A stretch of DNA of 64,000 bases from an uncultured Hyphomicrobiales bacterium (lineage in GTDB: Bacteria > Bacteroidota > Ignavibacteria > Kapaibacteriales > UBA2268): assembly GCA_964645005.1 (NCBI GenBank), contig CAZXYS010000001.1:158645-222644 (forward strand), given 5' to 3'. This document shows positions 446 to 22,735 of the stretch, piece by piece (the stretch's first letter is position 1; each line of letters begins with the position of its first letter). The position numbers and the translations under genes are program-made. The notes below the pieces were generated by a model. That model searched no databases. It was given only the letters and a program-made list of their open reading frames with translations, and was not told the origin of the DNA.

Positions 446-517
446 GGCCCCGTCGACTAACGGTTAGGTCACCAGCCTTTCACGCTGGCAGTAGGGGTTC
501 GAATCCCCTCGGGGTCA
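446..517 (+). tRNA. tRNA-Glu (anticodon TTC)
   Basis: Cloverleaf read by hand. The 7-bp acceptor stem is GGCCCCG/CGGGGTC with one G-T pair. The anticodon stem-loop is CCAGC-CTTTCAC-GCTGG with TTC at positions 34-36. The T-arm is GGGGTTCGAATCCCC and the discriminator is A. No CCA is encoded. Confidence 0.85.
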
Positions 518-525
518 CGAAAAAA

Positions 526-562
526 AGCCCGGAATTTAAGGTTCCGGGCTTTTATTTTTTTG
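526..562. terminator. Rho-independent terminator hairpin (likely bidirectional)
   Basis: AGCCCGGAA...TTCCGGGCT hairpin. It is followed by TTTTATTTTTTT on the + strand and preceded by an A-run, which reads as a T-run for the minus-strand HD gene ending at 643. Confidence 0.6.
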
Positions 563-642
563 AATTAAATTTGAAATTTTGTCACTATTCTAAATAATGA
601 ATATTCTTTACTGAAATATTGAGAAACTTCAGAATCATGTAT

Positions 643-2151
643 TTAGAAACTATTAGAAAATTTGTAATTATGAAAAAAGTTCAACATTTTTTCCTTGAGT
701 CCCTTAGTTTTAATATTCTTCTGATTTTCTTCTATGAAAAAATCAAAAATAATTCTATCTTCTTTGAAATTTTCCCAAGAACTTTCTAAATGGTTGTTTC
801 TTTTTTTCTGGGACTTTGATGGTATTGAGAATCCTAATACTTCTGCTAAAGTATGTTCTTCATTATCAATACTAACTTTAATCTCATCCTGTACCTGTTT
901 TTCAAATACCGGGGCTAATGTTTGTTTATAATTGATGAAATTAAAATGATAATCATTAATTAATTTTTCTTTTTGTTCATTTAAATCTATTATGAATTCA
1001 TTTATTTGATCTTCACTAACAACTTGCAGGTTGTCAAAATCTGCCAAATCCAAAGAGAATGCTCTTTTATAAAGATTTCTTTGCATAAAATGGTCAATTT
1101 TATTTTTTAAATGAGCATCGTCCGTACTATTTAATATTTTCGCTAACAGTGCGATAAATGATTGATCGTTCCATGAGATAAAAGAATTCAAATCTTTATC
1201 AGATGGGATACAGTCTTTATTTCTAAGAAATGGATAATAATTAAGCATTTCTTCATTATTTAGTTCAAACATTTTATTAATGATTTCTATCAAAAGAGCA
1301 TCAGTAATATTTCTTACGTGATGTTTATAAACATTATTATGCATTTTAAAGCGTGCAATTCTTAAACCCCATGCTTCTGTTGCAGCTTTTTCCAACACCC
1401 CGATCTCTCTGTTTGAAGTAATAAAAATATTTCCCCAAAGCCTCTGATAATCATATATGCCATAGTTAGTTCCACAGTGATATGAATCTCTTAGGACATA
1501 ATCTCCTTTATCAACATCAATAGGTCCGTCAATAATCTTTTTTAGTAAATAACTAACAGGATGTTCAATTGCCAAGTCCTGGATATTGGTATTAATTTTT
1601 TTTGTCTTGGCTATTAACTCTAAAGAAGTTCTTGCTAAATCAACAAATGGTGAATTTATTTGATTAATGTCTTTTATTATTTTTTCAGAAAGTTCATAGC
1701 TGTTGATTTCATGTATGTATCTGATTTTGATATCATTATTATTATTGTTACGATATTTGAAAACATCTTCAAATGTATGGCTGAAAGGGGCATGTCCAAT
1801 ATCATGTAACAAAGCTATTAGTCCGGCAGCTAACTTAAAAACTTCTTTTCTTTTGCTTGGCTTCAAAACCTTAATAAGAGAATCATTATCGCATATGGAT
1901 TTGAATCGACTTTCAGAAAATCTTATCAAATTATCTGCCGCATACATCGCTAAGTGCATTGCACCGATACTATGTTCAAATCGAGAATGCATTGCAGATG
2001 GATAAACTAATTGTTCCAAAGGCAATTGGCTTACCCATCTTAATCTTTGAACTATTTTGTGATCAAGAAATGGTTTTAAATCCGGGGGAATTGTTATAAA
2101 ACCATAAATCGGATCGCGAATATGTTTTTCAATCGTAAAGCCTCTCATCAA
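643..2151 (-). CDS. SAMHD1-like / dGTPase-family HD-domain dNTP triphosphohydrolase
   Basis: The N-terminus KHIRDPIYGFITIPPDLKPFLDHKIVQRLRWVSQLPLEQLVYPSAMHSRFEHSIGAMHLA matches the SAMHD1/EF1143-type signature (DPIHG...FQRLR...QLG...FPGA.H.RFEHSLG). The HD motif is LLHDIGHAPFSH. Length is 502 aa. The gene is extremely AT-rich (about 30% GC) compared with its neighbours. Confidence 0.75.
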   Translation of the reverse strand: MMRGFTIEKHIRDPIYGFITIPPDLKPFLDHKIVQRLRWVSQLPLEQLVYPSAMHSRFEHSIGAMHLAMYAADNLIRFSESRFKSICDNDSLIKVLKPSKRKEVFKLAAGLIALLHDIGHAPFSHTFEDVFKYRNNNNNDIKIRYIHEINSYELSEKIIKDINQINSPFVDLARTSLELIAKTKKINTNIQDLAIEHPVSYLLKKIIDGPIDVDKGDYVLRDSYHCGTNYGIYDYQRLWGNIFITSNREIGVLEKAATEAWGLRIARFKMHNNVYKHHVRNITDALLIEIINKMFELNNEEMLNYYPFLRNKDCIPSDKDLNSFISWNDQSFIALLAKILNSTDDAHLKNKIDHFMQRNLYKRAFSLDLADFDNLQVVSEDQINEFIIDLNEQKEKLINDYHFNFINYKQTLAPVFEKQVQDEIKVSIDNEEHTLAEVLGFSIPSKSQKKRNNHLESSWENFKEDRIIFDFFIEENQKNIKTKGLKEKMLNFFHNYKFSNSF

Positions 2152-2689
2152 TTTCTGTTGCCAAATCTAAATACCTTTTAATATTTTGTTGACTTTTACG
2201 CGATAAATCCATCCAACCCAATATCTTGCATTTGCGCTTTATTACTTCAATTTTTTCATTCTCTCTCAAACTGTTAAAATCCTGATTTAAATGACTTATC
2301 ATAATGTGGATTTTAGAAATGTTTGCTAATTCCGATTGAACATACTTTTTTTCAGGATACTTTTCAATAATAAAATTATATATTTCATTTATTCTATTAA
2401 TCAATTTATCGTTTCTTATGTTTTCTATATGATCAAATGTATTACTGTTGTGGACATAAAATTTGTTCTCAAAATAATTATACTCTACTTTTCCAACATT
2501 ATCAAGACTTTCCATGATCCTTTGTACGTTGACACTATAAGGTCCATAATTATATGGTATGTATGACTTATACCTAATATCCTCCGGCAGAGCAAAATAC
2601 ATAACCTTTTGAATTCCGGTCTTTCCGAAATTTAAATTATTATCATTTGCTAATTTAATAGCATACAGAACATAATCACTAGGATTCAT
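2129..2689 (-). CDS. Panacea (DUF4065, SocA/GepA-like) domain small protein, putative antitoxin-like partner
   Basis: Start assigned to the internal Met (MNPSDYVLYAIKLAN...) because the longer ORF overlaps the upstream OMP gene. The GKTGIQKVMYFA ... YNYGPYSVNVQRI pattern resembles the Panacea core (LKLQKLLYYA ... W.HGPV.P.VY). The 3' end overlaps the HD gene start by 23 nt. Composition is AT-rich like the HD gene. Confidence 0.4.
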   Translation of the reverse strand: MNPSDYVLYAIKLANDNNLNFGKTGIQKVMYFALPEDIRYKSYIPYNYGPYSVNVQRIMESLDNVGKVEYNYFENKFYVHNSNTFDHIENIRNDKLINRINEIYNFIIEKYPEKKYVQSELANISKIHIMISHLNQDFNSLRENEKIEVIKRKCKILGWMDLSRKSQQNIKRYLDLATEIDERLYD

Positions 2690-2753
2690 TACACCTCCAT
2701 TAGAAATAATTTTTTTCAATTTACACAAAAAAATCGACATGAACAAAATTCGT

Positions 2754-3245
2754 TTACGGATAATACCTGAATCCAACGCTAAAATCAAATCCCGCTTCCA
2801 CATCCGGCGCCAATTCTATTAAAGGACCTAACTCGAGGAATAACTCAAAATTTGACCGGCGCGGCGTGAAGTTTACGCCCATTATTCCACGGATGGCGAT
2901 GCCGGCGCCGTCTCTGTCACGGAATCTGCGGTCGTCGCGGTCATAAAAGACGCCGTCATTGCCGCCGAAACCTATTACTAACCCCGGTCCAGCGTAAAGA
3001 GAAAACTCATTTGACCTAAAAGCGTCGAAATGCCATAAGTAATCTGCTCCAAGCGCCAGTTCGCCAAAATAGGAAACTCCCAGAAAAGCATCCAACGCAT
3101 TTTTATTAGTAGTCCAGTATTTTATCGTCGCGCCGGTTGGCTCGCCCAGCATCAACCCGAAACCGAAATTACCGCCGCCGGGTTTCTGCGCCAACATTGT
3201 ATTGGCGAATAATAATATGCTTACTATGACCATTAACTTTCTCAT
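2754..3245 (-). CDS. small outer-membrane beta-barrel protein (OMP_b-brl-like)
   Basis: Start taken at MRKLMVIVSILLFANTMLAQ, a signal peptide. The body is rich in G/F/Y/D with alternating beta-strand character and ends ...GFRYYP with a terminal aromatic. GC is about 50%. Confidence 0.5.
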   Translation of the reverse strand: MRKLMVIVSILLFANTMLAQKPGGGNFGFGLMLGEPTGATIKYWTTNKNALDAFLGVSYFGELALGADYLWHFDAFRSNEFSLYAGPGLVIGFGGNDGVFYDRDDRRFRDRDGAGIAIRGIMGVNFTPRRSNFELFLELGPLIELAPDVEAGFDFSVGFRYYP

Positions 3246-4843: not shown

Positions 4844-5677
4844 TCACTCAAAAAGAATATTAAATGATCCTGTTCCTTCAATAGTACCAGAACCATTGCC
4901 CTCTTTTCCTTTAAATTCGAAATCACCTGTAATGAACTTTTCATTACTAGTGGTGAATGTTATATTACCTTCTTCACACAAATAAGCAGTTGTATTTTGT
5001 CCATCAATTATTGTTAAATTTGATGTATGTAATAGTTTTTTCTGATTGTTTTGATCGTCTTTTAAAAATAATAAGATAAATCCATAAGTTATATTATCAT
5101 TAATGAATTCTGTTTGAATCGACTGATAAATTTTGCCTTCATATTTCTGTGTGTTAAATATCACATTTGTTGATTTAAACTTAAGAGAATCTCCTTGGCT
5201 TAAATGAAATTCTATTTTTATAAATTCCTCAGGCTTATCTTCGATCGTAAACCTCCATTTGTCCTTCTCGGTTATACCGAGGTAAGTATATTCGTCAGCA
5301 GTCATATCTCTGACAATTCCTTCGTCAACCAGAACATAATACTCAGCGCCCCATTCAAATAACTTTGATAATGGTATATGAAGTACTTTCTTCTCGACTA
5401 TGTAACAGTCCTCAACATTGATAGTCTCAAATATATCATCATTATCAGAATTAAACACTCTAACGGATCCTTTATCCTTTTTAATGTCCATGTTAAAGAC
5501 CATTCTTAGCTCATGCTGATCGATCGGTACATCAGCAGAGCCATTCGCAGGATCGGATTCGGTTAATTCAGGTCCGGCGCCGCCTGTGGGACCTGTGCCG
5601 CCATTATCATCAGAGTCACTGCATGAAAAAAATAATAAAGAAATAATTAAAGCCGGAAGTAAGAAAAAGAATCTCAT
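4844..5677 (-). CDS. hypothetical lipoprotein
   Basis: Start taken at MRFFFLLPALIISLLFFSCSDSDDNGG. This is a lipobox (LFFSC) followed by a G/T/P-rich linker. No recognisable catalytic motif. Confidence 0.5.
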   Translation of the reverse strand: MRFFFLLPALIISLLFFSCSDSDDNGGTGPTGGAGPELTESDPANGSADVPIDQHELRMVFNMDIKKDKGSVRVFNSDNDDIFETINVEDCYIVEKKVLHIPLSKLFEWGAEYYVLVDEGIVRDMTADEYTYLGITEKDKWRFTIEDKPEEFIKIEFHLSQGDSLKFKSTNVIFNTQKYEGKIYQSIQTEFINDNITYGFILLFLKDDQNNQKKLLHTSNLTIIDGQNTTAYLCEEGNITFTTSNEKFITGDFEFKGKEGNGSGTIEGTGSFNILFE

Positions 5678-5693
5678 AAAAATTCCAATGTTT

Positions 5694-6239
5694 TTAAAAA
5701 GCATAATCTTCTTCAACCAATTGTTCTTCAAGATCGAATGACCCGTTAGAGATAGTAATTGTCTTACTTGCTATTGTTGTACTGGGATCGGTTAGTACGG
5801 CAGCGTAAAAATCGCCTTTGATGGTTTTGTTATCCATTTCGGAAAGTTCTATCTCGCCGCCGGTGTTCTTTATGTAATAATCTTCTGTCTCGCCGGAAGA
5901 AGCATTTCTTACAATCAATTCGACATTTCCATATCCCTGACTGAAAATAGGTCTGCATTGATAAACCAGCTTCCCGGTTCCATTATCCTGAATTTTGACA
6001 CTTAACTCATATTCTTTTCCGCCCTTTGATAATGTGCCTTTCACTTGTCTTAGAGTACCGTACTCAGCGGCATTTTTGTAGTAGACTGCGGAATCTATAT
6101 CAAAAGTCAGTGTTTCATCACCGCTGATACTTGCTTTCAACGTCCCAATAGTACTGTAATTATCTTTTTGGCAGGCATTTAAAAGTAGTATAAAACCAAT
6201 AACAGCAATAGTCGGCAGAAAAACTTTGATTGCATTCAT
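5694..6239 (-). CDS. hypothetical lipoprotein
   Basis: MNAIKVFLPTIAVIGFILLLNACQKDNY is a signal peptide with a lipobox cysteine. The gene sits in the same orientation as the downstream lipoprotein, 16 bp apart. Confidence 0.5.
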   Translation of the reverse strand: MNAIKVFLPTIAVIGFILLLNACQKDNYSTIGTLKASISGDETLTFDIDSAVYYKNAAEYGTLRQVKGTLSKGGKEYELSVKIQDNGTGKLVYQCRPIFSQGYGNVELIVRNASSGETEDYYIKNTGGEIELSEMDNKTIKGDFYAAVLTDPSTTIASKTITISNGSFDLEEQLVEEDYAF

Positions 6240-10938: not shown

Positions 10939-13900
10939 TTACTTCACTATCTCCATCTTTCTGAAGATCTTATTGGTTGGAGTTCTGAGCACATAGATAT
11001 AAATTCCTGCCGGTAGGTTATCCGGGGCAAAATTCACGCGGTATAAACCAGGCTGGACATCTTCCTCGAATAATGTTTTTACCTTCTTGCCCATTATATC
11101 TATCAAGTAGAGTTCAGTTTTACCATGTTGGATTGTTGAGAAGATGATTTCAGTTTCGTTGCTGAAAGGATTGGGGCGGTTCTGCAGCAGATATTGCTTC
11201 CCGGACTCGAAGAATAGGCGCTCTCCACCGGCATAGCAGAGATCGGTAAGGCAGAATATTGTCGTATCAACGGTGTTGAAAATGTCAGGTGCATTCCAGA
11301 CTACGGAATCAATGATGATCGGGGAACAGGCTGCATCACCCCATGCAGTACGGAAATTGAAATCAGCCAGAAGACCGATTGTATCCTCCCGAACACCACT
11401 TATGGTGATAACATTTTCTCTGTCTCCGTGTGTATGGCAGGTGAAATTTCCAAATGGGAGTAATACTGTTTTATTATACCGCAGATAGACTGTGAAGCTG
11501 TCCGCTTCAACCTTGGTTAGATTTTTTGATGAAGCAAGTGTTATGGGAACGGTGATCTCTTCACCTGCTGCTGCAAAAATAGTGTCAGGCACCGAAAATT
11601 CAGCGCTGGCAATACCCTTCCAGAATTCGAACTCATCAGAGACAGCCGTGCAGCCATTTTTATCATAAATTCTAACTGAATAGCTGCCGGTAGTATCGGG
11701 TACATATTTTCTATCGGCAGCGCCGGGAATAGGAGTACCATCTTTGTACCACTGGTAGTCTTCTGCCGGAGTCGAATAAAGTGAATCCATGACTTTAGTG
11801 ATTTGCGGCTTTGGTGGATTGGGATGAACTGTAACGGTTATAAAGGTATTGCTTTCGCCGGTGCAGCCATTGGCGTCGGTGACTTCTACAGAGTAATCAC
11901 CTGATTTAGTTACTTCTATCATCCTGCTTGTAGAGCCGTCCGACCATTCGTATGATTCGAAACCGGCGTCGGCGATAAGCTCAGTTGTATCTCCTTCGCA
12001 AAATTCGATGGGACCGTTCACAGTTATATCCGGTTCCGGCAAAGGATGAACAGTGACAATGAATTCTTCTGAAACATTTTCGCAGCCGGTAATGTCATTT
12101 CTCTCAAAAACGGTTATCGTTTTGGAACCTGAGCTGGTCCAGTTGACAATAATATTTGCCGCCCCCTGTCCCTCTTTGATATCTCCTCCGGAAACCGACC
12201 AGGTATAGGAGTGGTCAGCGGTCTCGGCTGTTTCATAACTATAGTCGTTGTCTGAGAAGCATAGTTCTCCGGCGCCTCTGATCTTAGGGTGGGGGAGAGG
12301 ATGTTTTGTTACGATAGCAGTATCTCTTCCTTCGCAATCATATTTATCTTTAACTAACACCGAATAAGTACCGGAAGATTTAACTACAATTTGTCTGCTT
12401 GTCTCTCCAGTGCTCCATTTATAACTGTCATATCCGTTGCCTGCATTGAGTATCAGGCTGTCGCCTTCGCAAAATTCCATTTTGCCAGTATTTGAAGTGA
12501 TCTCTGGCAGTAGTTCATCAGCAATATTAACATACATTGTATCGCAGCCAACACAGCCGGTTGTTTTATTTGTATCTATAATTGTGATCTTGCCTGTACC
12601 GCTGCCTGCCCATTTAACTTCAATATTAGTATCATCCATTTTAGGGCTATATGTTGTACTTCCCGATACCGTCCAGGTATATGTATGGTTGGGGTAAGAA
12701 TTTATCCAATAAATAACATTTTCTGAAAAAGCACAGACGCTCTCAGGACCATGTATTAGAGGTGCAGGATTCGGATGAACCGTAAATTCAACAGAATCCC
12801 TGCCGGTACACCCGTTTGAATCGGTTACAGTTACTAAATATTCTCCGGATTCAGACACAGTGATTTTGCTGTCGGTTTCTCCGTGACCCCATTCATATTT
12901 CTCGTAATCTCCTTCAACTGATAGTTCAGAAGAATCACCCTCACAAACTTCAAGATCACCGGTTATTTCCGGTTCCGGCGAATCAAACAATTCGATTTCA
13001 ATCGGTTTTGAAGTTCCCGTACAACCTAAATCGTCGACAACTGTTACATAATATATACCTTCTTTTTTAACCTTAATCTTTTGTGTAGTTTCTCCCGTTG
13101 ACCATGTATATTCTTCGAAACCGTCTGCAGCAAGCAGAACTACGCTGTCCCCCGGGCAAAACGGAACATCCCCTACAATGCCGACATCCGGCACATGCTC
13201 GAAACGGCATATTTTAAGTACAAAAGCATCCGCAGTACCTTCGAAATCTTTCTGGTGTGCAGCATCTGTCACATGAAAATCATCACTTCCGGTAACACCG
13301 CATACCAGTACATGATCTCCCGGATCAGTATCCACACCATAAGCATTATCATCGTATCTTCCGCCAATGTACGAAGCCCATTTTATCTCGCTGGCATCCG
13401 GAGCAGCTTTCAGGATGAAAGCGTCTCCGGTACTTGAGACACCGGTAAATTCATCTTTAAAGGCTCCGTAAGTCAGAGCCAGATCATCACTGTAGGTGTG
13501 CCCGGCAGCCAGGATATTGTCCGAATTATCTACAGCTATAGCTCTGGCGGCGTCATTTTCTTTGCCGCCGTAAAAGCCTGACCAGATTATCTGGCTGCTG
13601 CTATTTATTTTAGTTATTATTACATCGCTTTTTCCGTTTTTCATACTTTGGAACACACCACCGGCACTATGGTAGTCAGCACTGTAAGTTTCACCTGTAA
13701 AAACTATATCATTATTACTATCCACAGCAAGAGAATAACATCGATCTGCTGCTATACCCCCGAAGAGCTTTGAATCCAGATAACTTGACTTATTCGGGGG
13801 AGCGTCAAAACGTGCAATAAAGGCATCGTAGCCTTCGGGTTCTTCACGATCATCTTCACCGGTGACATTAACAGGAAAATTCTTGCTATTAGTAAATCCA

Positions 13901-15342
13901 CCGAAAACAATATCACCATTTTTATCATAAGCTGCCGTGCGAGCTTCATCAGTGCTGTCGCCCCCGAAATAAGTGCCCCAGATGTATCTGCCGTCAAGTG
14001 TCATCCTCGCAAGAAAACCATCGGCATTGCCGTACTGATCTTTGTCAAACCCGCTATCTGACGTAATAATATTTTTACTTTTAGTCCACCCGGTAATAGC
14101 TAGTTCTACTCCATTTTTGACCGCAATACCGTAGAAGTGCTCTTCTTTCTCGCCGCCGTAATATGTTGACCAGATGAGTTGTCCGACACTGTTAAATTTT
14201 GCTATGAATCCGTCAGTGCCTTCGTTAATGGGACCATTAAAAGTTTTGTCCATGGCATCATCGGTTACGGGAAAGTTCCGGCTCCAGGTGAATCCTGTGA
14301 GATAAATATTGTCGTATTCATCAAAGTCAAGATCCTGTGCATAATCTGTCTCTTCACCACCGAAATAGGTAGCCCAGAGAAGATTACCGCTGTTATCTAA
14401 TTTGATTATAAACGCATCGAAGAAGCCGTTCCTTTTTTGCTGGTGGGCGCCGGGGCTTACAGGGAAGTCTATACTCAGCGTTCTTCCTGTCACTACCGTA
14501 TTGTTTCTGCTGTCAATTTTCAGAGATTGGGCATGCTCGCCATTGGAACCGCCGTAATATGTGGACCAGAGTAAATTTGGGTCGATGACAAGTTTGTTGC
14601 TTTTGTTGTAGTCACCAATTTCAAAAGATATGCTGTGGTCTTTGATTGAATATCCGCAAGAAATTTCTTCCTTGGTATATTCATTTTCATGAATCTGATA
14701 AGCATAGGGACTTTCTTCTCTGATAATGCCATTATATGTTTTGATCTGCAGTGAATTGTCATCTAAAAGCTCTAATTGCGCTGAACTTGAATATGTCATT
14801 TTGATTGTGTCAGGATTGGCGCCAGGATGAAGAATAAAATCATATTTAAGCTTGTTTTTTCGCTGTGAATGATAAAAGACAAGATCGATATTTTCATAAA
14901 TATTTTTGTAGATGATCTTTTGGGAAGCAATTAGATTTTCAAATCTTTCTGAAGAACCTTTGTAGAAATTTATCTTCTGAGAGAGAGTATCACCTGATAT
15001 TACCTTTGCATCCGAATTACAACCTTCGAAACTCAGGTCAATTCTTTCAATTTGACAGTCCTCTTTAGAAAAATCTTTAATATCAGTAAGATTTGAATAT
15101 TCCGGGAAAACATAGCTGATGCCTGTTTTTCTGAAGAACAACTTCGAATTATGTTCACCTGTATAAAATAGAATATCATCGCAGCTTTTACCGTTGATAC
15201 CGGTAACCTGCCCCTTATTTTCAATAAAAAAATTGTTACCGTCGATCAGATTTTCCGTCGAGTAAACAAGGGATTTGTTAAAAAAAAGTGAAAAGAAAAC
15301 AATAATAATGAACTTTAAACCGTATTTTTCGAAGATATTCAT
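10939..15342 (-). CDS. large secreted beta-propeller/Ig-repeat protein with T9SS C-terminal sorting domain
   Basis: Signal peptide, repeated SBBP-like beta-propeller motifs (YYGG..D.A..IA.D..GN....G.T.S.DFPV) and repeated Ig-like CEGDS...Y.WS.GET modules. The C-terminus NRPNPFSNETEIIFST...GIYIYVLRTPTNKIFRKMEIVK is the Por/T9SS type-A CTD (TIGR04183-like). Confidence 0.7.
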   Translation of the reverse strand: MNIFEKYGLKFIIIVFFSLFFNKSLVYSTENLIDGNNFFIENKGQVTGINGKSCDDILFYTGEHNSKLFFRKTGISYVFPEYSNLTDIKDFSKEDCQIERIDLSFEGCNSDAKVISGDTLSQKINFYKGSSERFENLIASQKIIYKNIYENIDLVFYHSQRKNKLKYDFILHPGANPDTIKMTYSSSAQLELLDDNSLQIKTYNGIIREESPYAYQIHENEYTKEEISCGYSIKDHSISFEIGDYNKSNKLVIDPNLLWSTYYGGSNGEHAQSLKIDSRNNTVVTGRTLSIDFPVSPGAHQQKRNGFFDAFIIKLDNSGNLLWATYFGGEETDYAQDLDFDEYDNIYLTGFTWSRNFPVTDDAMDKTFNGPINEGTDGFIAKFNSVGQLIWSTYYGGEKEEHFYGIAVKNGVELAITGWTKSKNIITSDSGFDKDQYGNADGFLARMTLDGRYIWGTYFGGDSTDEARTAAYDKNGDIVFGGFTNSKNFPVNVTGEDDREEPEGYDAFIARFDAPPNKSSYLDSKLFGGIAADRCYSLAVDSNNDIVFTGETYSADYHSAGGVFQSMKNGKSDVIITKINSSSQIIWSGFYGGKENDAARAIAVDNSDNILAAGHTYSDDLALTYGAFKDEFTGVSSTGDAFILKAAPDASEIKWASYIGGRYDDNAYGVDTDPGDHVLVCGVTGSDDFHVTDAAHQKDFEGTADAFVLKICRFEHVPDVGIVGDVPFCPGDSVVLLAADGFEEYTWSTGETTQKIKVKKEGIYYVTVVDDLGCTGTSKPIEIELFDSPEPEITGDLEVCEGDSSELSVEGDYEKYEWGHGETDSKITVSESGEYLVTVTDSNGCTGRDSVEFTVHPNPAPLIHGPESVCAFSENVIYWINSYPNHTYTWTVSGSTTYSPKMDDTNIEVKWAGSGTGKITIIDTNKTTGCVGCDTMYVNIADELLPEITSNTGKMEFCEGDSLILNAGNGYDSYKWSTGETSRQIVVKSSGTYSVLVKDKYDCEGRDTAIVTKHPLPHPKIRGAGELCFSDNDYSYETAETADHSYTWSVSGGDIKEGQGAANIIVNWTSSGSKTITVFERNDITGCENVSEEFIVTVHPLPEPDITVNGPIEFCEGDTTELIADAGFESYEWSDGSTSRMIEVTKSGDYSVEVTDANGCTGESNTFITVTVHPNPPKPQITKVMDSLYSTPAEDYQWYKDGTPIPGAADRKYVPDTTGSYSVRIYDKNGCTAVSDEFEFWKGIASAEFSVPDTIFAAAGEEITVPITLASSKNLTKVEADSFTVYLRYNKTVLLPFGNFTCHTHGDRENVITISGVREDTIGLLADFNFRTAWGDAACSPIIIDSVVWNAPDIFNTVDTTIFCLTDLCYAGGERLFFESGKQYLLQNRPNPFSNETEIIFSTIQHGKTELYLIDIMGKKVKTLFEEDVQPGLYRVNFAPDNLPAGIYIYVLRTPTNKIFRKMEIVK

Positions 15343-15696
15343 CAGATTTTTTCAGATTTGTTGAATGAACAGTTAAAAATATTGAGAAAAATTTTATTAA
15401 CTAATATAGTAACACTTTTTAACATTAAAAAACGTTTAACTTTAAAATAAATGGCATGGTTTTAGTATTTACATTGTATTTTATGTAAAATTAATAGGAT
15501 TAACAGGAAAAATAGAATTTTTTATCGAAGATATTTATTAATATAAAATTGTATCATAAATTTGCACTTAGTCATAACAAAATAAATATAACTTGTTGAA
15601 GCAAAAATCTCGGTTTATATTGAATTTTCAAAAAATTAGGAGATCACTATAGAAATAACACTGCTACAATTTTTATATAAGTAACATATTGTTCAT

Positions 15697-15804
15697 CGGT
15701 TAACGAGTTCGATACGGTTAAGAGCGGTAAAATACAAAACAAAGGTGAGTGGTGATCATAACGGTTACTTAATAAACCATTATTTTGGAATATAATCGGT
15801 TAAG
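15697..15804 (+). promoter_or_regulatory. cluster of CGGTTAA(G) motif copies around the sprA-like start (candidate operator, speculative)
   Basis: CGGTTAA occurs at about 15697, 15715 and 15798, with variants CGGTAAA at about 15725 and CGGTTAC at about 15762. ACGGTTAAGA occurs twice. The cluster lies in the 440-bp AT-rich divergent promoter region and runs into the first codons of the sprA-like gene. Confidence 0.2.
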
Positions 15805-18800
15805 AATTTTGCGTAGCAGTGAAAAAAAAATATTTACAATAATTATATTTTCAATAATATTATTCTTTACTACCGGTCAAACCGGTAGAAGTTCCCAATT
15901 CTTTACAGACTACTTTTCTACTTATAACTACTCCACATATAATCTCCTCAATTATAATTATTTCCTTTTCAGCCCTTTCAATCCATCTTACTTTAATTTG
16001 CTTTGGCAGGATCTTGATGAAGCCGCCTCACCAAAAGATTCAAGCTATTTCGACAAAGGACTGATGTATGACAAGGAAAATCTCGGTAGATATGAAGAAC
16101 TTCGCAGCAGATTTGGCTTCTATGAAAATTACATTCCGGAAGGTTATGAATATTCCGCCGAAATGGATTCTTCCGGCGAGAGATTTAGAACAAGGGAAAC
16201 CTTCGATAGCATAAACATTACCTACCCTTATGAATTAAGCCTTGATGAATACTTAGAGCTTAGAAAGAATAAATTAACAGATAATATCTGGGATTCGCTT
16301 ACCGCCGATTATGATCTTAAAAAGTCACTTTCCGGAGGAGATATAGCCAGATTGCTGGGGCAGGCTACGGGAATTGCTATTCCAGTACCGCCCAATCCGG
16401 TTATTAACATTTTTGGTAAGCCTGAGATAAGCATTAATGTAAACGGGGAAGTGAACCTTAGAATGGGCTTCCGCTGGGATTCGCAGAATTTGGGTACTGT
16501 ATCGGCATTCGGGCAGACGCAGGCTTCGCCTATGTTTAATCAGGACATAAGGGTGAACGTAAGCGGTAGAATAGGAGATAAACTCAAACTGGGCACCGAC
16601 TGGAACACACGCAGGACTTTCGATCATGATAACCAGTTCAAGATAGGATATGAAGGCGAAGACGATGATATTATCAAGCTGGTCGAAGTGGGTAATGTCA
16701 GCCTGCCGCTGGAATCGCAGTTAATCGGCGGTGGAGATGCCCTGTTCGGTGTTCGTGCTGATTTTCAGTTCGGTCCATTATTCCTGAAAACATTGTTTTC
16801 ACAGAGACGCGGCGAAAGGAAATTTGTTGACGTCCGCGGCGGCGTCAGCAGGCAGTACTTCCGATTGCATGCTTATGATTATGCCAAGAATCACTTCTTC
16901 CTTGATACAGCATATAAAACTATTTATGATTCATATTTTGAGAATCCCTCTTCACCTGTAATTAAAAATGATAATAGTGAAGCCAACTATATGCGAATAA
17001 AAGAAATAGAAGTATGGGAAACTACAAATGATGTCCGTGATGTTCATTCTGCCGAAGCGGTTGCTTTTGCTGATCTGGAACCTATTAAAAGTAAACAGGG
17101 GGAAACGTATTCTAATTCTAAGAAAAGTGAACCGATGGAAGCAGGAAAAATTGAAAGCGGAAGATTTATGAGGTTAGATTCAAACCGATATCGAGTAAAC
17201 CGTAATCTTGGGACATTAACGATTTTGAATCTTCGTCAGGATCGTACTTATGCCGTTGCTTTTAGGACTGAAGGAAAAGATGCCAATACTCCCAATGATG
17301 ATGAATATTATGGCACATTCTCACAGCATGCAAAAACTAAGGATACGCTGATCCTTAGACTGGTATACCGACCAAATCTGCAGCCTAAATTTGAAACTCT
17401 ATGGGACAGGCAGATGAAGAATATATACTCCATCAATGCCACAAATGTTAACAGGGATGAAACAGAGATAGGTGTCTGGTATATAAATCAATCAAATGAT
17501 TCTACTGATGTATTGCAGGGTGCTCCTGACAAGCTTTTAAAAATTTTAGGTGTTGACAACGTAACTAATAGTACAGGTTCAAAGCCCCCTGACGGTAAAT
17601 TTGACCTTAAGGAGCCATTTTTCAATGCCCAATACGGAGAGATAACCTTTCCTGACACCAGACCTTTTGACAGCGGGTTAGTAGAATATTTCGAAGAACA
17701 AGGTAACGCGCAATTGGCTCAACAATACACTTTCCCGGAAGTGTATGATACAACTTATGACATTGCCCGATTGAATGCCAATCGCGATAGATTTATTATC
17801 TCCGGCTACGTCTCCGGCAGGGCTACTAACAAAATATCTCTCGGGGCTTTTAATCTGGCTCAAGGGAGCGTGAAAATCACCCTTGACGGAAAGCAACTCC
17901 GCGAATATGAAGACTATATAGTTGACTATTACGCCGGTACGGTTACTCTTAGAAATCCAAGAGCCACTCTGCCAAACGCTGACCTGCAAATTCAATATGA
18001 GCAGCACGATGTTTTTAATATTTCAACCAGAACTTTAGCAGGAATACGGGGTGATTATATCGTCGAGCGCAATAGAAGAATGGAAGCTATGTTAGGTTTT
18101 ACCGTAATGCATTATGACCAATCGGCTCTTATCGACCGTGTACGAATTGGCGAAGAGCCTGTTTCAAACACAATGCTCGGGCTCGATGGAAGCCTTCAGT
18201 GGGATACTCCCTGGATGACCAAGATGCTCGATATGCTGCCTTTTTATGATACAAAAGCTAAATCCCACCTTAATGTTGGTGGTGAACTCGCAATGATCCT
18301 GCCTACTCCAAACAAGAGAGAATCAAATGTATCATCGGATAATGGCGAACCGGTAGTTTATATTGATGATTTTGAGGGAGCACAAAGACAAATATCTTTG
18401 GGGCTTAATCCCACGCAGTGGTCGCATTCATCGCCGCCCGTAGATTCTTCTATTGCTTTAGATGATACAAGCAGAGCCAAATACAGAGGAAAAATGTTCT
18501 GGTTTCAGTATTTTATACCTCGAGTTCCAATTAAAGATATATGGCCCAACCGCTCAACACTTACAGGCAGATCAAAGGTGAGTCCTTTAGAAATTTTGTT
18601 TGATCCCAATTTCAGAGGCATCTATAATAATAATCCCGAGTATCTCGATCCCCGAAATCCTGATTACGATTCTACCGATGCCTTCGCTTTTAAACCTGAG
18701 AATAGGGAGAAAATCTGGGGCGGTATGATGCGCCTATTTTCTTCGTTCAATACGAACTTCGATACTGAGAATATCGAGTATATTGAAATTATGATGCGGG

Positions 18801-21800
18801 TTAATCCGAATCTATACGAGCCAGGCAGAACAAAAATGTATATTGAACTCGGACAGATAAGTGAAGATGTGATACCAAATGACACTCTTGACACCGAGGA
18901 TGGCAGTACTGCAGCAAATCCCCTGCCTAATGGTATTATCGATGTCGGTGAAGACAAAGGTCTTGACCGTCTAAATAATGATCAAGAGAGAGAGGTATAC
19001 TTACCCCCGTTAAATAAGGAAGATGACCCTGCTCGTGATGACTACTCATTCAATTTTAATGAAGACGATCAGTACAGAGACGATAATGATTTCCGTTTCT
19101 ATAATAATTATGAGGGAAATGCCAGAGTCTCCGAATTAGGTCAGTTCCCCGACACTGAGATACTCAATGATAATAACGGACAGACCCTTGCAAGAGACAA
19201 CAGTTACTTTACTTATGAGGTGAATTTAACACCCGATCCAAACGTAAACAAACAAATAGTTGGCGGTAATGAAGATAAAGGATGGTTTTTGTATAGAATA
19301 CCTATAAGAAAACCTGACCGCAGAACCGGCAACCCATCATTTTCAAATATTCAATACATCAGGGCTTGGTTTAAAGGCGGAGTGCTGAAAGCAAAGATAG
19401 CTGACTGGCGGCTTGTCGGTTCTCAGTGGCAGAGGATCAGCCAGTTTCAATCTGATGTGCCGCCTGACGACAGCGTTATGTCGCTTGCATTCGTAAACCG
19501 CGAAGAGAACGCAGGACCACCGGACTTTTATACTCTTCCGCCGGGAGTTCATCCACCTCGGCAAAGAGGAGCAGCACGCCAGTACGAAGATATTCAGCTT
19601 AATGAACAATCACTGTCGGTCAGTGTAAAAAATCTGAGGTATGGCGATGAAAGAATGGCTGTTCGTATATTCCGCGACATGGATCTATTCAATTACAATG
19701 AACTGAAATTCTTTATCCATGGCGATGGCTCGATGCCTGATAAAATAGTTCCCGGTTCCACACCGAAGGCGTATGCTTTCGTACGCTTTGGGACGGACTC
19801 ATCAAACTATTACGAATACAGAGTCCCATTGGTCAGGGGATGGCAGGATCTGGGAATTAAAATGGATGAACTGACGGCTATAAAGAAAATAAGGGATACA
19901 TCAAGAATATTCGAAAGACAGGATGGTTTCCCCGTGCCCGGTGAAGAATTTTCAACATTTGCCATCAAGGGAAATCCGATCCTGACAAGAGTTAAATTCT
20001 TTGGGGTAGGTATATCCAATCCTGAGGAGAGATTCCCCAACGAATTGACCACAACCATGTGGGTGAACGAATTACGCCTGATAAGCCCCGAAGATGATGC
20101 CGACTGGGCAGGTATCGGTAATATTGATATGAAACTGGCAGATCTGGGCTCAATCTCGGCTAATTTCAGGCATAGTCTGCCTAATTTCCATAAACTGGAA
20201 GAGCGGTTCGGAAACAGAATGACTACGACTCAATGGTCTGTGTCGATGCAGGGTAATCTGGAAAAGTTCGCGCCTAAAAGCTTCAAAGGTATGAAGCTTC
20301 CGATTTCTTACACTCACTCGGAATTTTTCGAGAATCCCGAATATGTGGCTAATAGTGACATAAATTTGGATGAAGCTGCGGATGCCGTTTATGATGATGT
20401 ATATAATAATTCCCAGAATAGGGGGGAAGCAAAAAATGCAGCTCAGGAATTCAGAGAAGAATCTCAAACTCTAAGAATACAGGACAGGTGGGCGATTACC
20501 GGTGTGCAATTAGGATTGCCGACCAAATTCTGGATGATAGATAAAACGCTGAACAGGATTACATTTACATATTCTTACTCGCAGGAATATGAAAGATCGC
20601 CTGTGGTGGAGGAACGTTTTAGCTGGATATGGCAGCTCAATGCCAAGTACTCCGTTAATTTTCCCAATTTACTTGAATTCGAGCCTATGGGATGGGCAAA
20701 AGAAGTTCCAATACTAAATACATATAATGAATTGAAAGTGAACTTCCTGCCCAACAATTTATCTCTTGGGCTGGATATGCAGCGCCAGCGTACAACTGAA
20801 AAGTCGCGCTTCCTTGACTTTCCGAGTCCTGTTTACAGGGACTTCTCAGCTTCAAGGAATGCACAGTTTACATGGAAATTTGCTGAAGGAGGATTCATAA
20901 ATCCGGTGCTGGATTATTCTGTTAACTCTCAGAATACCCTTGTCCCTCTGGAATTCAATGCCCAGGGTGAGCAAAGAACCGGCAGTGAAATAGCCTCAGC
21001 AATGTTTTTCAACGACGGAAGTATCATTGATTTCGGAAAGAACAATAGACATACGCAGACCGTAACACTGAAATTTACTCCTGTACTGCCCAATGCGGCA
21101 GGTATAAGCGAAGCAATGGATATATCCGGGCAGTTTAATACCACCTATAATTGGGATAATCCGAGGGAGCCTGATCCTGAGCTTACTGATGTTGCCAAAA
21201 ATGCTAGTTATAACAGCAGCATAAGATTCAGTTTGGGATTGAAGCTGAAATCACTTGGCGATAGTTGGTTTGGCGGCGGGACATCATCTGGTCAAGGATC
21301 ACCCACAGGTTTTGCTCCACCCGATACAAGCAGGGATAAAAAGCCCAAAAGCAAAAGCGGCGGTCTTAAACTGTTAGGAACCGTGGGTAAAGTATTTAAA
21401 ACAATTTTCATGGATTACGAAAAGGTTGATTTCTCCATCAACCAGCAGAATTCCTCGACAAATCCGGGAGTTTACGGCGGTACAGGTATGAATAATTTCT
21501 GGGGTAGAAGTCTACTGTTCAGGGATAACAGAGATATCTATGGACCGAGTACTGCTTATCAGTTGGGGCTTGTATCGAATCCCCACGGAGGTTTTTATAT
21601 GACAGGTTCCGATAAATTCCCCTGGTTCGGGTTCAATACATACACCGGCTTAAGACCGCCAAATGCCGTACTGCAGGATAATTACAGCCAGTCTACTTCG
21701 TTCAAAATAGCTACTAACCGTCCTTTGTGGAAGGATGCAACCTTGGAGCTTAACTGGCAGACAAGTTTGGGATATAACCGCAACTCGACAGTTATCACTG

Positions 21801-22735
21801 AGGACGACGGTGTACCGCAATTCACTAATATAATTGCTATGGAATCCCTGCAAAGAACCTATCTGGCATTGCCGACAATTTTTGGGATAAATCTTGGTAA
21901 CACAATTGAAAGCGTTGTTGAGCTTTATGAGCTGAAAAAAGCTGCAATCGAAGCTGCCGCCGTAGATTCTATAGATAAGTATCAGAAGCTGCAAAACGCA
22001 CTTGGACAATCATTCCATGACGGCTTCGAATTGTTTAGCATCTTCAGTGGACAAGCCGGCAAATTCATGCCCGCAGTTAACTGGGCACTCAGGTGGGAAG
22101 GCATCGAAGACTGGGGCATCTGGGGCGGTATTGCTAAGAGGGTTTCTCTTGAGCATGCCTATCAGTCACAATATCAGGAAAATGCCCAGATAACCGACAA
22201 CGGACGAACTGTTCAGGGGCAGCAGGTACAATTTGGGTTCCAACCATTGGTAGGATTAACTATGGGATTTGATGAGAATGCCCTGAATGGCGTACTAACG
22301 GCGTCATTTCGATGGAACTCACAGACGTCCTATCAATTAATGTCATCCAACAGGTCTACAATTACGCGTCAGAGTTCGGAAGAAATATCAGTTCAAGCTA
22401 GTTACACTATGAAATCATTCGATTTTCCGTTGTTGGGATTCACATTCAAAAATGATTTTGAGGTTAGCTGGATGACCTCCTTCAAAATGAATAAACGTGC
22501 AACTTATGACATCCTCGACGAATCCAGCTACGAAGACAATGAAGAGGGAAGAACCCTCGACGGAAACACGCAGCTTACAATAGAACCCCGCGCAACCTAT
22601 TCAATTAGCGATAGAGTAAGGGCATCATTTTTCTTCCGATACGAGGGGACTTTTACCGAAGGTGCAGCTCAACCGGGATTCAGTACTTATCAGGTTGGTC
22701 TTGATATAAGGATCTCCATTGCCGGGGGTAGATAA
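15785..22735 (+). CDS. giant outer-membrane protein, SprA/Sov-like T9SS translocon candidate
   Basis: 2316 aa with a TTG start and an N-terminal signal/TM segment. Composition is rich in G/N/Y/F/T/S, typical of a very large beta-barrel. The size matches SprA/Sov (about 2300-2500 aa). It is divergent from a T9SS cargo gene in a genome that clearly uses T9SS. Family assignment is by size, context and composition only. Confidence 0.45.
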   Translation: MEYNRLRILRSSEKKIFTIIIFSIILFFTTGQTGRSSQFFTDYFSTYNYSTYNLLNYNYFLFSPFNPSYFNLLWQDLDEAASPKDSSYFDKGLMYDKENLGRYEELRSRFGFYENYIPEGYEYSAEMDSSGERFRTRETFDSINITYPYELSLDEYLELRKNKLTDNIWDSLTADYDLKKSLSGGDIARLLGQATGIAIPVPPNPVINIFGKPEISINVNGEVNLRMGFRWDSQNLGTVSAFGQTQASPMFNQDIRVNVSGRIGDKLKLGTDWNTRRTFDHDNQFKIGYEGEDDDIIKLVEVGNVSLPLESQLIGGGDALFGVRADFQFGPLFLKTLFSQRRGERKFVDVRGGVSRQYFRLHAYDYAKNHFFLDTAYKTIYDSYFENPSSPVIKNDNSEANYMRIKEIEVWETTNDVRDVHSAEAVAFADLEPIKSKQGETYSNSKKSEPMEAGKIESGRFMRLDSNRYRVNRNLGTLTILNLRQDRTYAVAFRTEGKDANTPNDDEYYGTFSQHAKTKDTLILRLVYRPNLQPKFETLWDRQMKNIYSINATNVNRDETEIGVWYINQSNDSTDVLQGAPDKLLKILGVDNVTNSTGSKPPDGKFDLKEPFFNAQYGEITFPDTRPFDSGLVEYFEEQGNAQLAQQYTFPEVYDTTYDIARLNANRDRFIISGYVSGRATNKISLGAFNLAQGSVKITLDGKQLREYEDYIVDYYAGTVTLRNPRATLPNADLQIQYEQHDVFNISTRTLAGIRGDYIVERNRRMEAMLGFTVMHYDQSALIDRVRIGEEPVSNTMLGLDGSLQWDTPWMTKMLDMLPFYDTKAKSHLNVGGELAMILPTPNKRESNVSSDNGEPVVYIDDFEGAQRQISLGLNPTQWSHSSPPVDSSIALDDTSRAKYRGKMFWFQYFIPRVPIKDIWPNRSTLTGRSKVSPLEILFDPNFRGIYNNNPEYLDPRNPDYDSTDAFAFKPENREKIWGGMMRLFSSFNTNFDTENIEYIEIMMRVNPNLYEPGRTKMYIELGQISEDVIPNDTLDTEDGSTAANPLPNGIIDVGEDKGLDRLNNDQEREVYLPPLNKEDDPARDDYSFNFNEDDQYRDDNDFRFYNNYEGNARVSELGQFPDTEILNDNNGQTLARDNSYFTYEVNLTPDPNVNKQIVGGNEDKGWFLYRIPIRKPDRRTGNPSFSNIQYIRAWFKGGVLKAKIADWRLVGSQWQRISQFQSDVPPDDSVMSLAFVNREENAGPPDFYTLPPGVHPPRQRGAARQYEDIQLNEQSLSVSVKNLRYGDERMAVRIFRDMDLFNYNELKFFIHGDGSMPDKIVPGSTPKAYAFVRFGTDSSNYYEYRVPLVRGWQDLGIKMDELTAIKKIRDTSRIFERQDGFPVPGEEFSTFAIKGNPILTRVKFFGVGISNPEERFPNELTTTMWVNELRLISPEDDADWAGIGNIDMKLADLGSISANFRHSLPNFHKLEERFGNRMTTTQWSVSMQGNLEKFAPKSFKGMKLPISYTHSEFFENPEYVANSDINLDEAADAVYDDVYNNSQNRGEAKNAAQEFREESQTLRIQDRWAITGVQLGLPTKFWMIDKTLNRITFTYSYSQEYERSPVVEERFSWIWQLNAKYSVNFPNLLEFEPMGWAKEVPILNTYNELKVNFLPNNLSLGLDMQRQRTTEKSRFLDFPSPVYRDFSASRNAQFTWKFAEGGFINPVLDYSVNSQNTLVPLEFNAQGEQRTGSEIASAMFFNDGSIIDFGKNNRHTQTVTLKFTPVLPNAAGISEAMDISGQFNTTYNWDNPREPDPELTDVAKNASYNSSIRFSLGLKLKSLGDSWFGGGTSSGQGSPTGFAPPDTSRDKKPKSKSGGLKLLGTVGKVFKTIFMDYEKVDFSINQQNSSTNPGVYGGTGMNNFWGRSLLFRDNRDIYGPSTAYQLGLVSNPHGGFYMTGSDKFPWFGFNTYTGLRPPNAVLQDNYSQSTSFKIATNRPLWKDATLELNWQTSLGYNRNSTVITEDDGVPQFTNIIAMESLQRTYLALPTIFGINLGNTIESVVELYELKKAAIEAAAVDSIDKYQKLQNALGQSFHDGFELFSIFSGQAGKFMPAVNWALRWEGIEDWGIWGGIAKRVSLEHAYQSQYQENAQITDNGRTVQGQQVQFGFQPLVGLTMGFDENALNGVLTASFRWNSQTSYQLMSSNRSTITRQSSEEISVQASYTMKSFDFPLLGFTFKNDFEVSWMTSFKMNKRATYDILDESSYEDNEEGRTLDGNTQLTIEPRATYSISDRVRASFFFRYEGTFTEGAAQPGFSTYQVGLDIRISIAGGR

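Follow-up and report, generated by a model that had tools for sequence, protein, structure and literature searches.

A pair of overlapping genes, encoding a SAMHD1/EF1143-like HD phosphohydrolase (the HD protein) and a small protein related to the C-terminal domain of DarG, was analysed on a 64,000-nt stretch of DNA (the window; positions 158,645 to 222,644 of the forward strand of contig CAZXYS010000001.1, assembly GCA_964645005.1) from an uncultured bacterium, deposited as Hyphomicrobiales and placed by GTDB in UBA2268 of the Kapaibacteriales (Bacteroidota; Ignavibacteria). The small gene and the HD gene are a co-inherited, co-diverging pair, which occurs in two gene orders in bacteria and archaea. 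Judged from the encoded sequences, the pair is concluded to be a genuine, though divergent, variant of a PanA-type module known from prediction only, with a putative deoxynucleoside triphosphate (dNTP) triphosphohydrolase (dNTPase) as effector. Somewhat better than even chances are given to a two-gene type II toxin-antitoxin-like or defence module, in which a SAMHD1-type dNTPase would be restrained by the DarG-C-terminal/Panacea-like protein. An initial annotation, made from the nucleotide letters and the open reading frames (ORFs), had described the locus as an AT-rich islet beside a tRNA-Glu gene, with a Panacea-like/SAMHD1-like gene pair as candidate toxin-antitoxin or antiphage module.

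Conservation of the gene pair

Relatives of the HD protein at 40-47% identity were found in Ignavibacteriota, Desulfobacterota, Deferribacterota, Firmicutes, Thermococci and Methanococci. In the clade to which the window's HD protein belongs, the small gene was located immediately upstream of the HD gene in 13/13 independent loci (the window, L003, L005, L006, L007, L088-L092 and L113-L115; Geovibrio thiophilus and the archaeon Palaeococcus pacificus are included), at distances from a 20-nt overlap to +40 nt, except for L115 at +162 nt. About 25 further loci carried the partner immediately downstream of the HD gene, and the same position was seen at the closest relatives among the genome-scan loci (L008-L013, L015, L017, L044, L048, L062 and L069); the partner of L016 is located upstream, and the L014 locus is truncated. 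The scan of genome contigs, performed with the HD alignment, yielded among the matches listed mostly distant housekeeping-type proteins and one member of the close clade. Such distant loci served as negative controls: about 65 of them, among the 80 listed genome-scan loci (Bacteroidota, Nitrososphaerales and others), were without a partner, and none was found at the EF1143-type loci of Bacillus, Listeria, Enterococcus and Staphylococcus (0/4).

The reverse search, started from an alignment of the window's small-protein subfamily (A1), gave an adjacent HD gene in 16/16 metagenome loci, 5 antitoxin-first and 11 HD-first. Three of four further relatives (P0181, P0164 and P0234) are also HD-adjacent, and the fourth, P0159, has other neighbours. 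Some of the partner matches obtained with the profile hidden Markov model are circular, because the sequences in question had been used to build it; detections independent of the profile comprise L015, L088-L103, L111 and L113-L115. In a rough neighbour-joining tree of the HD proteins, the deep topology of which is not reliable, the antitoxin-first loci, except L016, formed one long-branched clade. The HD-first loci were distributed over two or three further clusters, in which a partner was detected at every locus except L045, which falls together with L016 next to one cluster. The identity matrices of HD protein and partner were correlated with a Mantel r of 0.856 over 31 loci and of 0.842 in the close clade (p ≤ 5e-4), values to be read with the caveat that the sequences are phylogenetically related and that one pair of loci is nearly identical.

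The co-occurrence anticipated for such a module in the initial annotation was thus borne out in many unrelated genomes. Chance adjacency of two genes with unrelated functions is effectively refuted by the co-occurrence and mirror-tree data, since pairing was complete in both sets (13/13 and 16/16), occurred in two gene orders and in unrelated contexts, and was accompanied by the high Mantel correlation. As in PanAT pairs, a two-gene locus is conserved in at least two species with the small gene within 100 nt of the putative toxin gene, L115 being the exception; and, as in type II systems, the window's pair is bicistronic with a 20-nt overlap, and its small protein has the fold of the DarG C-terminal domain/Panacea.

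Two deviating arrangements were recorded separately. In the three metagenome contigs L095-L097 (L095:2025-3324), the partner gene is intact and the HD gene next to it consists of two overlapping reading frames; a sequencing error could account for this, or a frameshift in the effector gene, which may have become a pseudogene. P0159 (L108:4001-5569), which passes the Pfam Panacea model PF13274 and has no HD neighbour, is flanked by a giant Cna_B/DUF7601 surface protein and by a WYL-domain regulator with a 48-aa ORF; an orphan antitoxin, or one that has changed its partner, would be a possible explanation.

Identity of the two proteins

The HD protein matched the Pfam families HD (PF01966; 8e-8, 33 bits) and HD_assoc_2 (PF19276; 1.6e-9, 38 bits), both above the cut-offs. 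Among PDB entries, Aquifex 2HEK was the best match (6e-32), with further matches to 9MR6, Bacteroides 2Q14, the Enterococcus dNTPase EF1143 (4e-20) and many SAMHD1 entries (~4e-18), and the PDB alignments spanned all core motifs. QRLR, RFEHS, HDIGHAPFSH, H146-E147, DVDKGDYxxRD and YKHH were invariant in 25 homologues. In the alignment to 6TXC, R56, H59, H115, D116, H119, H124 and H146 correspond to SAMHD1 R164, H167, H206, D207, H210, H215 and H233, and D213, K214, Y217, D221, Y274 and H276 to SAMHD1 D311, K312, Y315, D319, Y374 and H376. All 13 equivalents of the metal-ligand, catalytic and triphosphate-binding residues, which in SAMHD1 serve metal binding (H...HD...D), catalysis and triphosphate binding, are invariant in the 25 homologues. 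The equivalents of SAMHD1 D137, Q142 and R145, the guanine-nucleotide allosteric site of that enzyme, were likewise kept in the alignment. The C-terminal ~120 residues gave no match to anything.

The large protein is therefore recognised by its sequence as a SAMHD1/EF1143-type HD phosphohydrolase with intact catalytic motifs, in agreement with the SAMHD1/dGTPase-type enzyme proposed initially, and the sequence motifs quoted in support of that proposal were present in the translations. It is predicted to be a dNTP triphosphohydrolase and to be the effector, or 'toxin', of the pair. A Dgt-type defence dGTPase was considered as well and rejected: the PADLOC dGTPase model PDLC02374 (E 2.2e-4) covered only residues 110-134 (model 101-125 of 395), TIGR01353 reached 18.6 bits vs. 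a cut-off of 152, and the matches to these models were limited to ~25 residues at the HD motif.

It is regarded as rather improbable that the pair is a toxin-antitoxin or defence module with an HD effector for substrates other than dNTPs; such an effector could cleave single-stranded DNA (ssDNA) or RNA, or hydrolyse NTPs or signalling nucleotides. In such a module, the partner might act by mimicry and cover a surface that binds nucleic acids, in analogy to the action of the DarG C-terminal domain on DarT; ssDNA mimicry by that domain is described by Deep et al. 2023 (cited in PMC13621843), and SAMHD1 is described as a single-stranded nucleic-acid-binding protein (PMC4513882, PMC10711556). The chemistry of the HD superfamily is versatile, and the HD proteins of the window's clade form a long branch of their own, with the unmatched C-terminal region. 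However, every residue of the SAMHD1/EF1143 catalytic core is conserved, namely the HD...D ligands, the catalytic His/Glu and the triphosphate-holding Arg/Lys/Tyr, and the closest relatives with known biochemistry, EF1143 and SAMHD1, act as dNTPases. SAMHD1 is moreover reported to be without active-site-associated nuclease activity (PMC4513882).

Two side observations concern the HD protein. It matched phrog_35128, a phage family of unknown function (2.7e-28 for the window's protein and 1.2e-38 for that of L111), so SAMHD1-like HD genes are also present in phage genomes. In addition, the 321-aa protein P0101 combines PF04365 (DUF497, BrnT-like toxin domain) with an HD_assoc_2 region 51% identical to part of the window's HD protein, a combination that could stem from a chimera, a gene fusion or a frameshift.

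When the small protein was searched against a word index of 5.8 billion proteins, only the query itself came back, and homologues became accessible solely through the genes next to HD relatives. The HD genes of contigs from Ignavibacterium, Desulfovibrionaceae and Melioribacter adjoin an unannotated gene of 172-177 aa, whose products are 27-33% identical to the window's small protein (BLASTP 8e-20 to 3e-16). The window's small protein matched the C-terminal part of the DarG models of PADLOC (4.5e-6) and NCBIfam (2.6e-4, 20 bits vs. a cut-off of 250), and the PADLOC DarG model was matched by all 16 family members of a second alignment (A3; best 1.4e-15). The family profile was aligned to PDB 7YK3_B, the DarG C-terminal domain in the DarT-DarG complex, with 1.4e-9 (profile 26-168, chain residues 36-184); by sequence as well as by structure this domain was the best and only full-length match, at an identity of ~15-16%. 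A DarG-type C-terminal toxin-binding domain is accordingly recognisable in sequence and fold. No N-terminal macrodomain was matched in the 186 aa, and no DarT lies beside the small protein; unlike in DarT-DarG (7YK3), where the partner is the DarT ADP-ribosyltransferase, the neighbour is an HD phosphohydrolase, likewise in all related loci.

The Panacea/DUF4065 assignment of the initial annotation held at the level of the family only. The window's small protein had no PF13274 match even at E ≤ 1, which, taken literally, contradicts the assignment. PF13274 was reached by 3 of the 16 family members, and its gathering score (25.7 bits) was passed by eight relatives (P0128, P0137, P0156, P0159, P0199, P0214, P0229 and P0181; 26-31 bits, model positions 2-106 of 113), with which A1 was aligned by hhalign at 94.2% probability (E 1e-7). 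The DarG and Panacea labels are reconciled by a 2026 paper, which independently states a homology between DUF4065 proteins and the inhibitor domain at the C-terminus of DarG (PMC13621843). Because the window's protein misses PF13274 and relatives pass it, it is a relative within the superfamily and not a Pfam-defined member. The conclusion drawn from these profile comparisons is that of a stand-alone DarG C-terminal-domain homologue in the Panacea superfamily, whose divergence puts it beyond the reach of the Pfam model and which is predicted to be the binding partner or antitoxin of the HD enzyme. In an exhaustive profile search, an E-value of at most 1e-3 was reached by 2,798 clusters at 50% identity, and one of at most 1e-10 by 634; among the 150 top-scoring representatives listed, nearly all were stand-alone proteins of about 160-190 aa. 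Source labels on some relatives read 'antitoxin SocA domain-containing' or 'YwgA' (JGI), and no paper was found that treats YwfO and YwgA as a pair.

Structurally, the small protein consists of an N-terminal winged helix and a helical C-terminal half, and its structural neighbours besides DarG are all DNA-binding winged-helix proteins (MarR, PadR, ArsR, MntR and ORC/Cdc6). Both features would suit a protein that is mainly a winged-helix transcription factor and autoregulates the HD gene with no protein-protein inhibition. This role is nevertheless considered very improbable, since the overlapping, coupled genes and the tight co-divergence suggest a stoichiometric complex, and since the HD-first order of many relatives would be unusual for a dedicated upstream regulator. 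Moreover, the two roles are not mutually exclusive, as type II antitoxins often autoregulate.

As a further observation, the PADLOC phage-defence candidate PDC-M19A was matched by 12 of the 16 small-protein family members (best 2.5e-7). The HD proteins gave no match to PDC-M19 components, and no paper mentioning PDC-M19 was found; PDC-M19 is probably another Panacea-type pair with a different effector.

Proposed function, precedents and mobility

In the proposed toxin-antitoxin or defence module, the HD enzyme would most likely hydrolyse dNTPs to deoxynucleosides and triphosphate, and its unrestrained activity would starve DNA replication. The small protein would most likely bind the HD enzyme directly and keep it inactive in the manner of a type II antitoxin, with translational coupling yielding a fixed ratio of the two. 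Loss of the inhibitor by proteolysis after a block of host gene expression, or its displacement by a phage factor, would free the dNTPase, which could then collapse the dNTP pool and halt phage or plasmid DNA synthesis via growth arrest or abortive infection. A wider proposal is made tentatively, as possible at less than even chances: the HD enzymes may represent an ancient, widespread dNTPase class, gated not by nucleotides alone but by a DarG/Panacea-derived stoichiometric inhibitor that doubles as infection sensor, and hence a bona fide antiphage system. If true, dNTPase control would have a third mode, in addition to those by allosteric nucleotides and by the p3diT of the Clover system. 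To our knowledge, no such antiphage system with nucleotide depletion controlled by a protein antitoxin has been described experimentally.

Precedents exist for the individual steps. PanA proteins bind and neutralise diverse cognate toxins (Kurata et al. 2022, PMC8832971), in line with what had been stated initially about Panacea domains, and the DarG C-terminal domain binds and inhibits its cognate toxin directly (PMC13621843, PMC8832971). Dataset S1 of Kurata et al. lists PanA together with an 'HD domain-containing protein' (CDD YdhJ) as toxin cluster T34, which is flagged 'notest' and absent from the main text; the impression given in the initial annotation that such a pair had not been described therefore had to be withdrawn. 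T34 shares with the window a small Panacea-superfamily protein encoded within a few nt of a YdhJ/COG1078 (SAMHD1-like) HD protein, and its toxin-first rows (gaps of -17 to 0 nt; Ammonifex, Desulfofundulus and Caldicellulosiruptor) resemble the HD-first clusters found here. In contrast, the window's clade is antitoxin-first, its small protein misses PF13274, and its HD protein is only ~30% identical to those of the HD-first clusters and belongs to a separate clade. A literature search retrieved no paper linking DUF4065, PanA or SocA with SAMHD1, dGTPase or dNTPase.

For the effector, dNTPases are described in phage defence (Tal et al., bioRxiv 2021.04.26.441389), which agrees with the antiphage mechanism cited in the initial annotation. 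The dGTPase/dCTP deaminase systems of Tal et al. and octameric dGTPases (PMC13519002) have the same predicted effector chemistry, i.e. dNTP depletion, but they are mostly single-gene, Dgt-type enzymes for which no protein antitoxin partner is described. Clover is, like the window's pair, a two-gene system, in which the partner gene of a toxic dNTPase (CloA), the nucleotidyltransferase gene cloB, restrains it until infection (PMC12265719). The restraint in Clover is p3diT, a small molecule from the nucleotidyltransferase, whereas the partner here is without an enzyme fold, like a stoichiometric protein inhibitor; no nucleotidyltransferase domain was found in the small protein, which comprises a winged helix and a helical domain. 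SAMHD1, EF1143 and Aquifex 2HEK share HD plus HD_assoc_2, the catalytic residues and the equivalents of allosteric site 1 with the window's HD protein, but these enzymes act alone, and the window's protein adds its C-terminal region to the common architecture. T7 Gp1.2, described as a protein inhibitor of E. coli Dgt (PMC9478638), likewise shows that an HD-family dNTPase can be bound and turned off by a small protein, yet it is a phage-encoded counter-defence factor, unrelated in sequence and not co-encoded with Dgt. Taken together, the precedents of PanA, DarG, the defence dNTPases, Clover and Gp1.2 make the proposed mechanism plausible.

Depletion of dNTPs is an antiviral strategy of both humans (SAMHD1) and bacteria, and the control of self-toxic dNTPases is only starting to be understood, Clover having been described in 2025. 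The module suggests an alternative form of restraint, by a co-encoded protein inhibitor of the DarG/Panacea antitoxin superfamily, and the hyperpromiscuous Panacea domain would gain a large, enzymatic partner predicted to target the nucleotide pool. The pairing is no peculiarity of a single genome, as it extends from Ignavibacteriota and Desulfobacterota to Thermococci. The Pfam Panacea model and PADLOC are both blind to the antitoxin-first clade, which is missed completely by Pfam-based screens.

The distribution of the pair is patchy across phyla and archaea, and the neighbourhood differs at every locus. An association with mobile elements and defence islands was observed in part. At L003, the pair adjoins a type IIG restriction-modification gene. 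At L115 (1-10752), one side carries an integrase, a Schlafen/SLFN_AlbA_2 protein, an AAA_15/OLD-TOPRIM nuclease and an Eco57I-type restriction-modification system, and the other a cI-like helix-turn-helix (HTH)/S24 repressor and an HTH_17 excisionase; these surroundings are apparently an integrative element or defence island. In a metagenome-assembled genome of Tissierellaceae (L111, 606-6639; also L112), the gene pair and a DDE transposase interrupt a prophage between its portal gene and the gene for the large terminase, an insertion that looks like moron-type cargo. A tblastn search against phages and plasmids gave matches of <31% identity throughout, mostly to chromosomal or housekeeping-type sequences, and thus no evidence of the close clade on known phages or plasmids. 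The module seems to have arrived beside tRNA-Glu as horizontally mobile cargo, in a host of the Fibrobacterota-Chlorobiota-Bacteroidota (FCB) group.

Several findings weigh against a toxin-antitoxin or defence module at this locus. Neither protein matches a validated PADLOC system, and the missing PF13274 match of the small protein has to be counted here as well; its AlphaFold2 model was moderate, with a predicted local distance difference test score (pLDDT) of 68.7 that was lower in the C-terminal half. A 'toxin' of 501 aa is far larger than classical type II toxins. No integrase was found between 446 and 2803, and no tRNA-derived direct repeat, the best direct repeats being AT-rich, 12-23 nt long and at chance level; an empty site was not found either, the module being present in every contig with an identical outer-membrane protein (OMP). 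A tRNA-integrated genomic island, as implied by the initial annotation, was accordingly not supported, since of integrase, distal repeat of the tRNA 3' end and compositional anomaly only the last was seen; the case for an islet at the tRNA therefore consists of base composition and position. Furthermore, housekeeping-looking contexts were found in Geovibrio, Palaeococcus, Pyramidobacter and a gut metagenome contig, with housekeeping neighbours at L005, L113, L114, L116 and L118. Finally, the HD protein and its partner have stayed together over deep divergence, in contrast to PanA, for which frequent partner swapping is described in the hyperpromiscuous PanAT systems, and a regulatory subunit of a normal dNTP-homeostasis enzyme would therefore fit too.

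Such a housekeeping two-subunit dNTPase, in which the small protein would be a dedicated regulatory or targeting subunit (acting, for example, by allosteric control, by control of the oligomer or by tethering to DNA via the winged helix) and the pair neither toxin-antitoxin nor defence system, is the foremost competing explanation but is considered unlikely. Apart from the housekeeping-looking neighbourhoods and the long-lived, co-diverging partnership in both gene orders, it is favoured by the allosteric-site residues kept in the alignment and by the normal size of the HD enzymes, which are related to the homeostatic EF1143 and SAMHD1. However, most sampled housekeeping SAMHD1-like genes (the ~65 loci and four Firmicutes loci above) manage without a partner, and the characterised members of the small protein's superfamily, the DarG C-terminal domain and PanA, are toxin inhibitors. 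The patchy occurrence among phyla, the outlying GC content in the window and the copies in prophages or defence islands also argue against a core enzyme, and the frameshifted HD gene beside an intact partner at L095-L097 resembles toxin decay more than loss of such an enzyme.

Locus layout, base composition and neighbouring genes

Coordinates of the locus are given in Table 1. Two minus-strand genes beside tRNA-Glu, as stated in the initial annotation, were found between this tRNA gene and the OMP gene; on its left, the low-GC cassette is bordered by the tRNA gene, which converges with the HD gene. The small gene was recovered with the extent first proposed: its ORF covers 2129-2803, the ATG preceded by GGAGG is the likely start, and for both genes the starts agree with those in independent public gene calls for identical contigs (L001: 1339-1899 and 1880-3385). 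For the HD gene, the ORF of 643-2151 was confirmed, but not the start giving 502 aa, as the publicly called ATG gives 501 aa; the TTG at 2151, 3 nt upstream of the ATG, is an alternative start. Correspondingly, the 23-nt overlap reported first applies from the TTG, and an overlap of 20 nt from the ATG. Since the end of the small gene overlaps the start of the HD gene, the arrangement suggests translational coupling.

Table 1. Features of the tRNA-Glu/OMP interval of the window, with positions counted from its first nucleotide
Feature	Position	Strand	Details
tRNA-Glu, anticodon UUC	446-518	+	ARAGORN; Rfam RF00005, 63 bits
GC-rich hairpin, T-runs on both strands	520-556		Inverted repeat; terminator scan 523-553 (+)
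SAMHD1/EF1143-like HD phosphohydrolase, 501 aa	643-2148	-	ATG start at 2148
Small protein, 186 aa	2129-2689	-	DarG-C-terminal-domain-like, Panacea superfamily; ATG 2689
Overlap of small gene and HD gene, 20 nt	2129-2148	-	Small-gene stop TGA 2131-2129; HD ATG 2148
Upstream region of small gene	2690-2788	-	GGAGG 2698-2694; sigma-70-like TTGATT-17-TATTAT 2788-2760
OMP gene	2754-3245		Neighbour of small gene

The hairpin, which sits between tRNA-Glu and the 3' end of the HD gene and is followed by TTTTTTT after its stem on the minus strand, is likely a bidirectional terminator serving the tRNA and the HD operon. Upstream of the small gene, the sigma-70-like site falls within the 3' end of the OMP gene and is a consensus match of the promoter scan. 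The terminator scan gave none between the OMP gene and the small gene.

The GC contents of the HD gene (0.296) and the small gene (0.286) were compared with those of the OMP gene (0.453) and asnS (0.51), and the low values stated in the initial annotation were confirmed, with a break at about 2700-2750. Both genes were the two lowest among the 33 ORFs of at least 120 aa in the window (mean 0.417, sd 0.051), and their GC contents at third codon positions (GC3) were 0.24 and 0.29 vs. a mean of 0.44. The anomaly of the cassette is real but not unique, because the nearby gene at 4844-5731, encoding a Big_5 Ig-like lipoprotein, is a second low-GC gene (GC 0.331, GC3 0.30).

Further along the window, the region 10939-22735 encodes a 1467-aa Por_Secre_tail protein, i.e. 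a cargo protein of the type IX secretion system, with DUF7948, PKD and SBBP domains, and a 2316-aa SprA homologue. From these SprA and Por_Secre_tail proteins, the host is assigned to the FCB group and equipped with a type IX secretion system.

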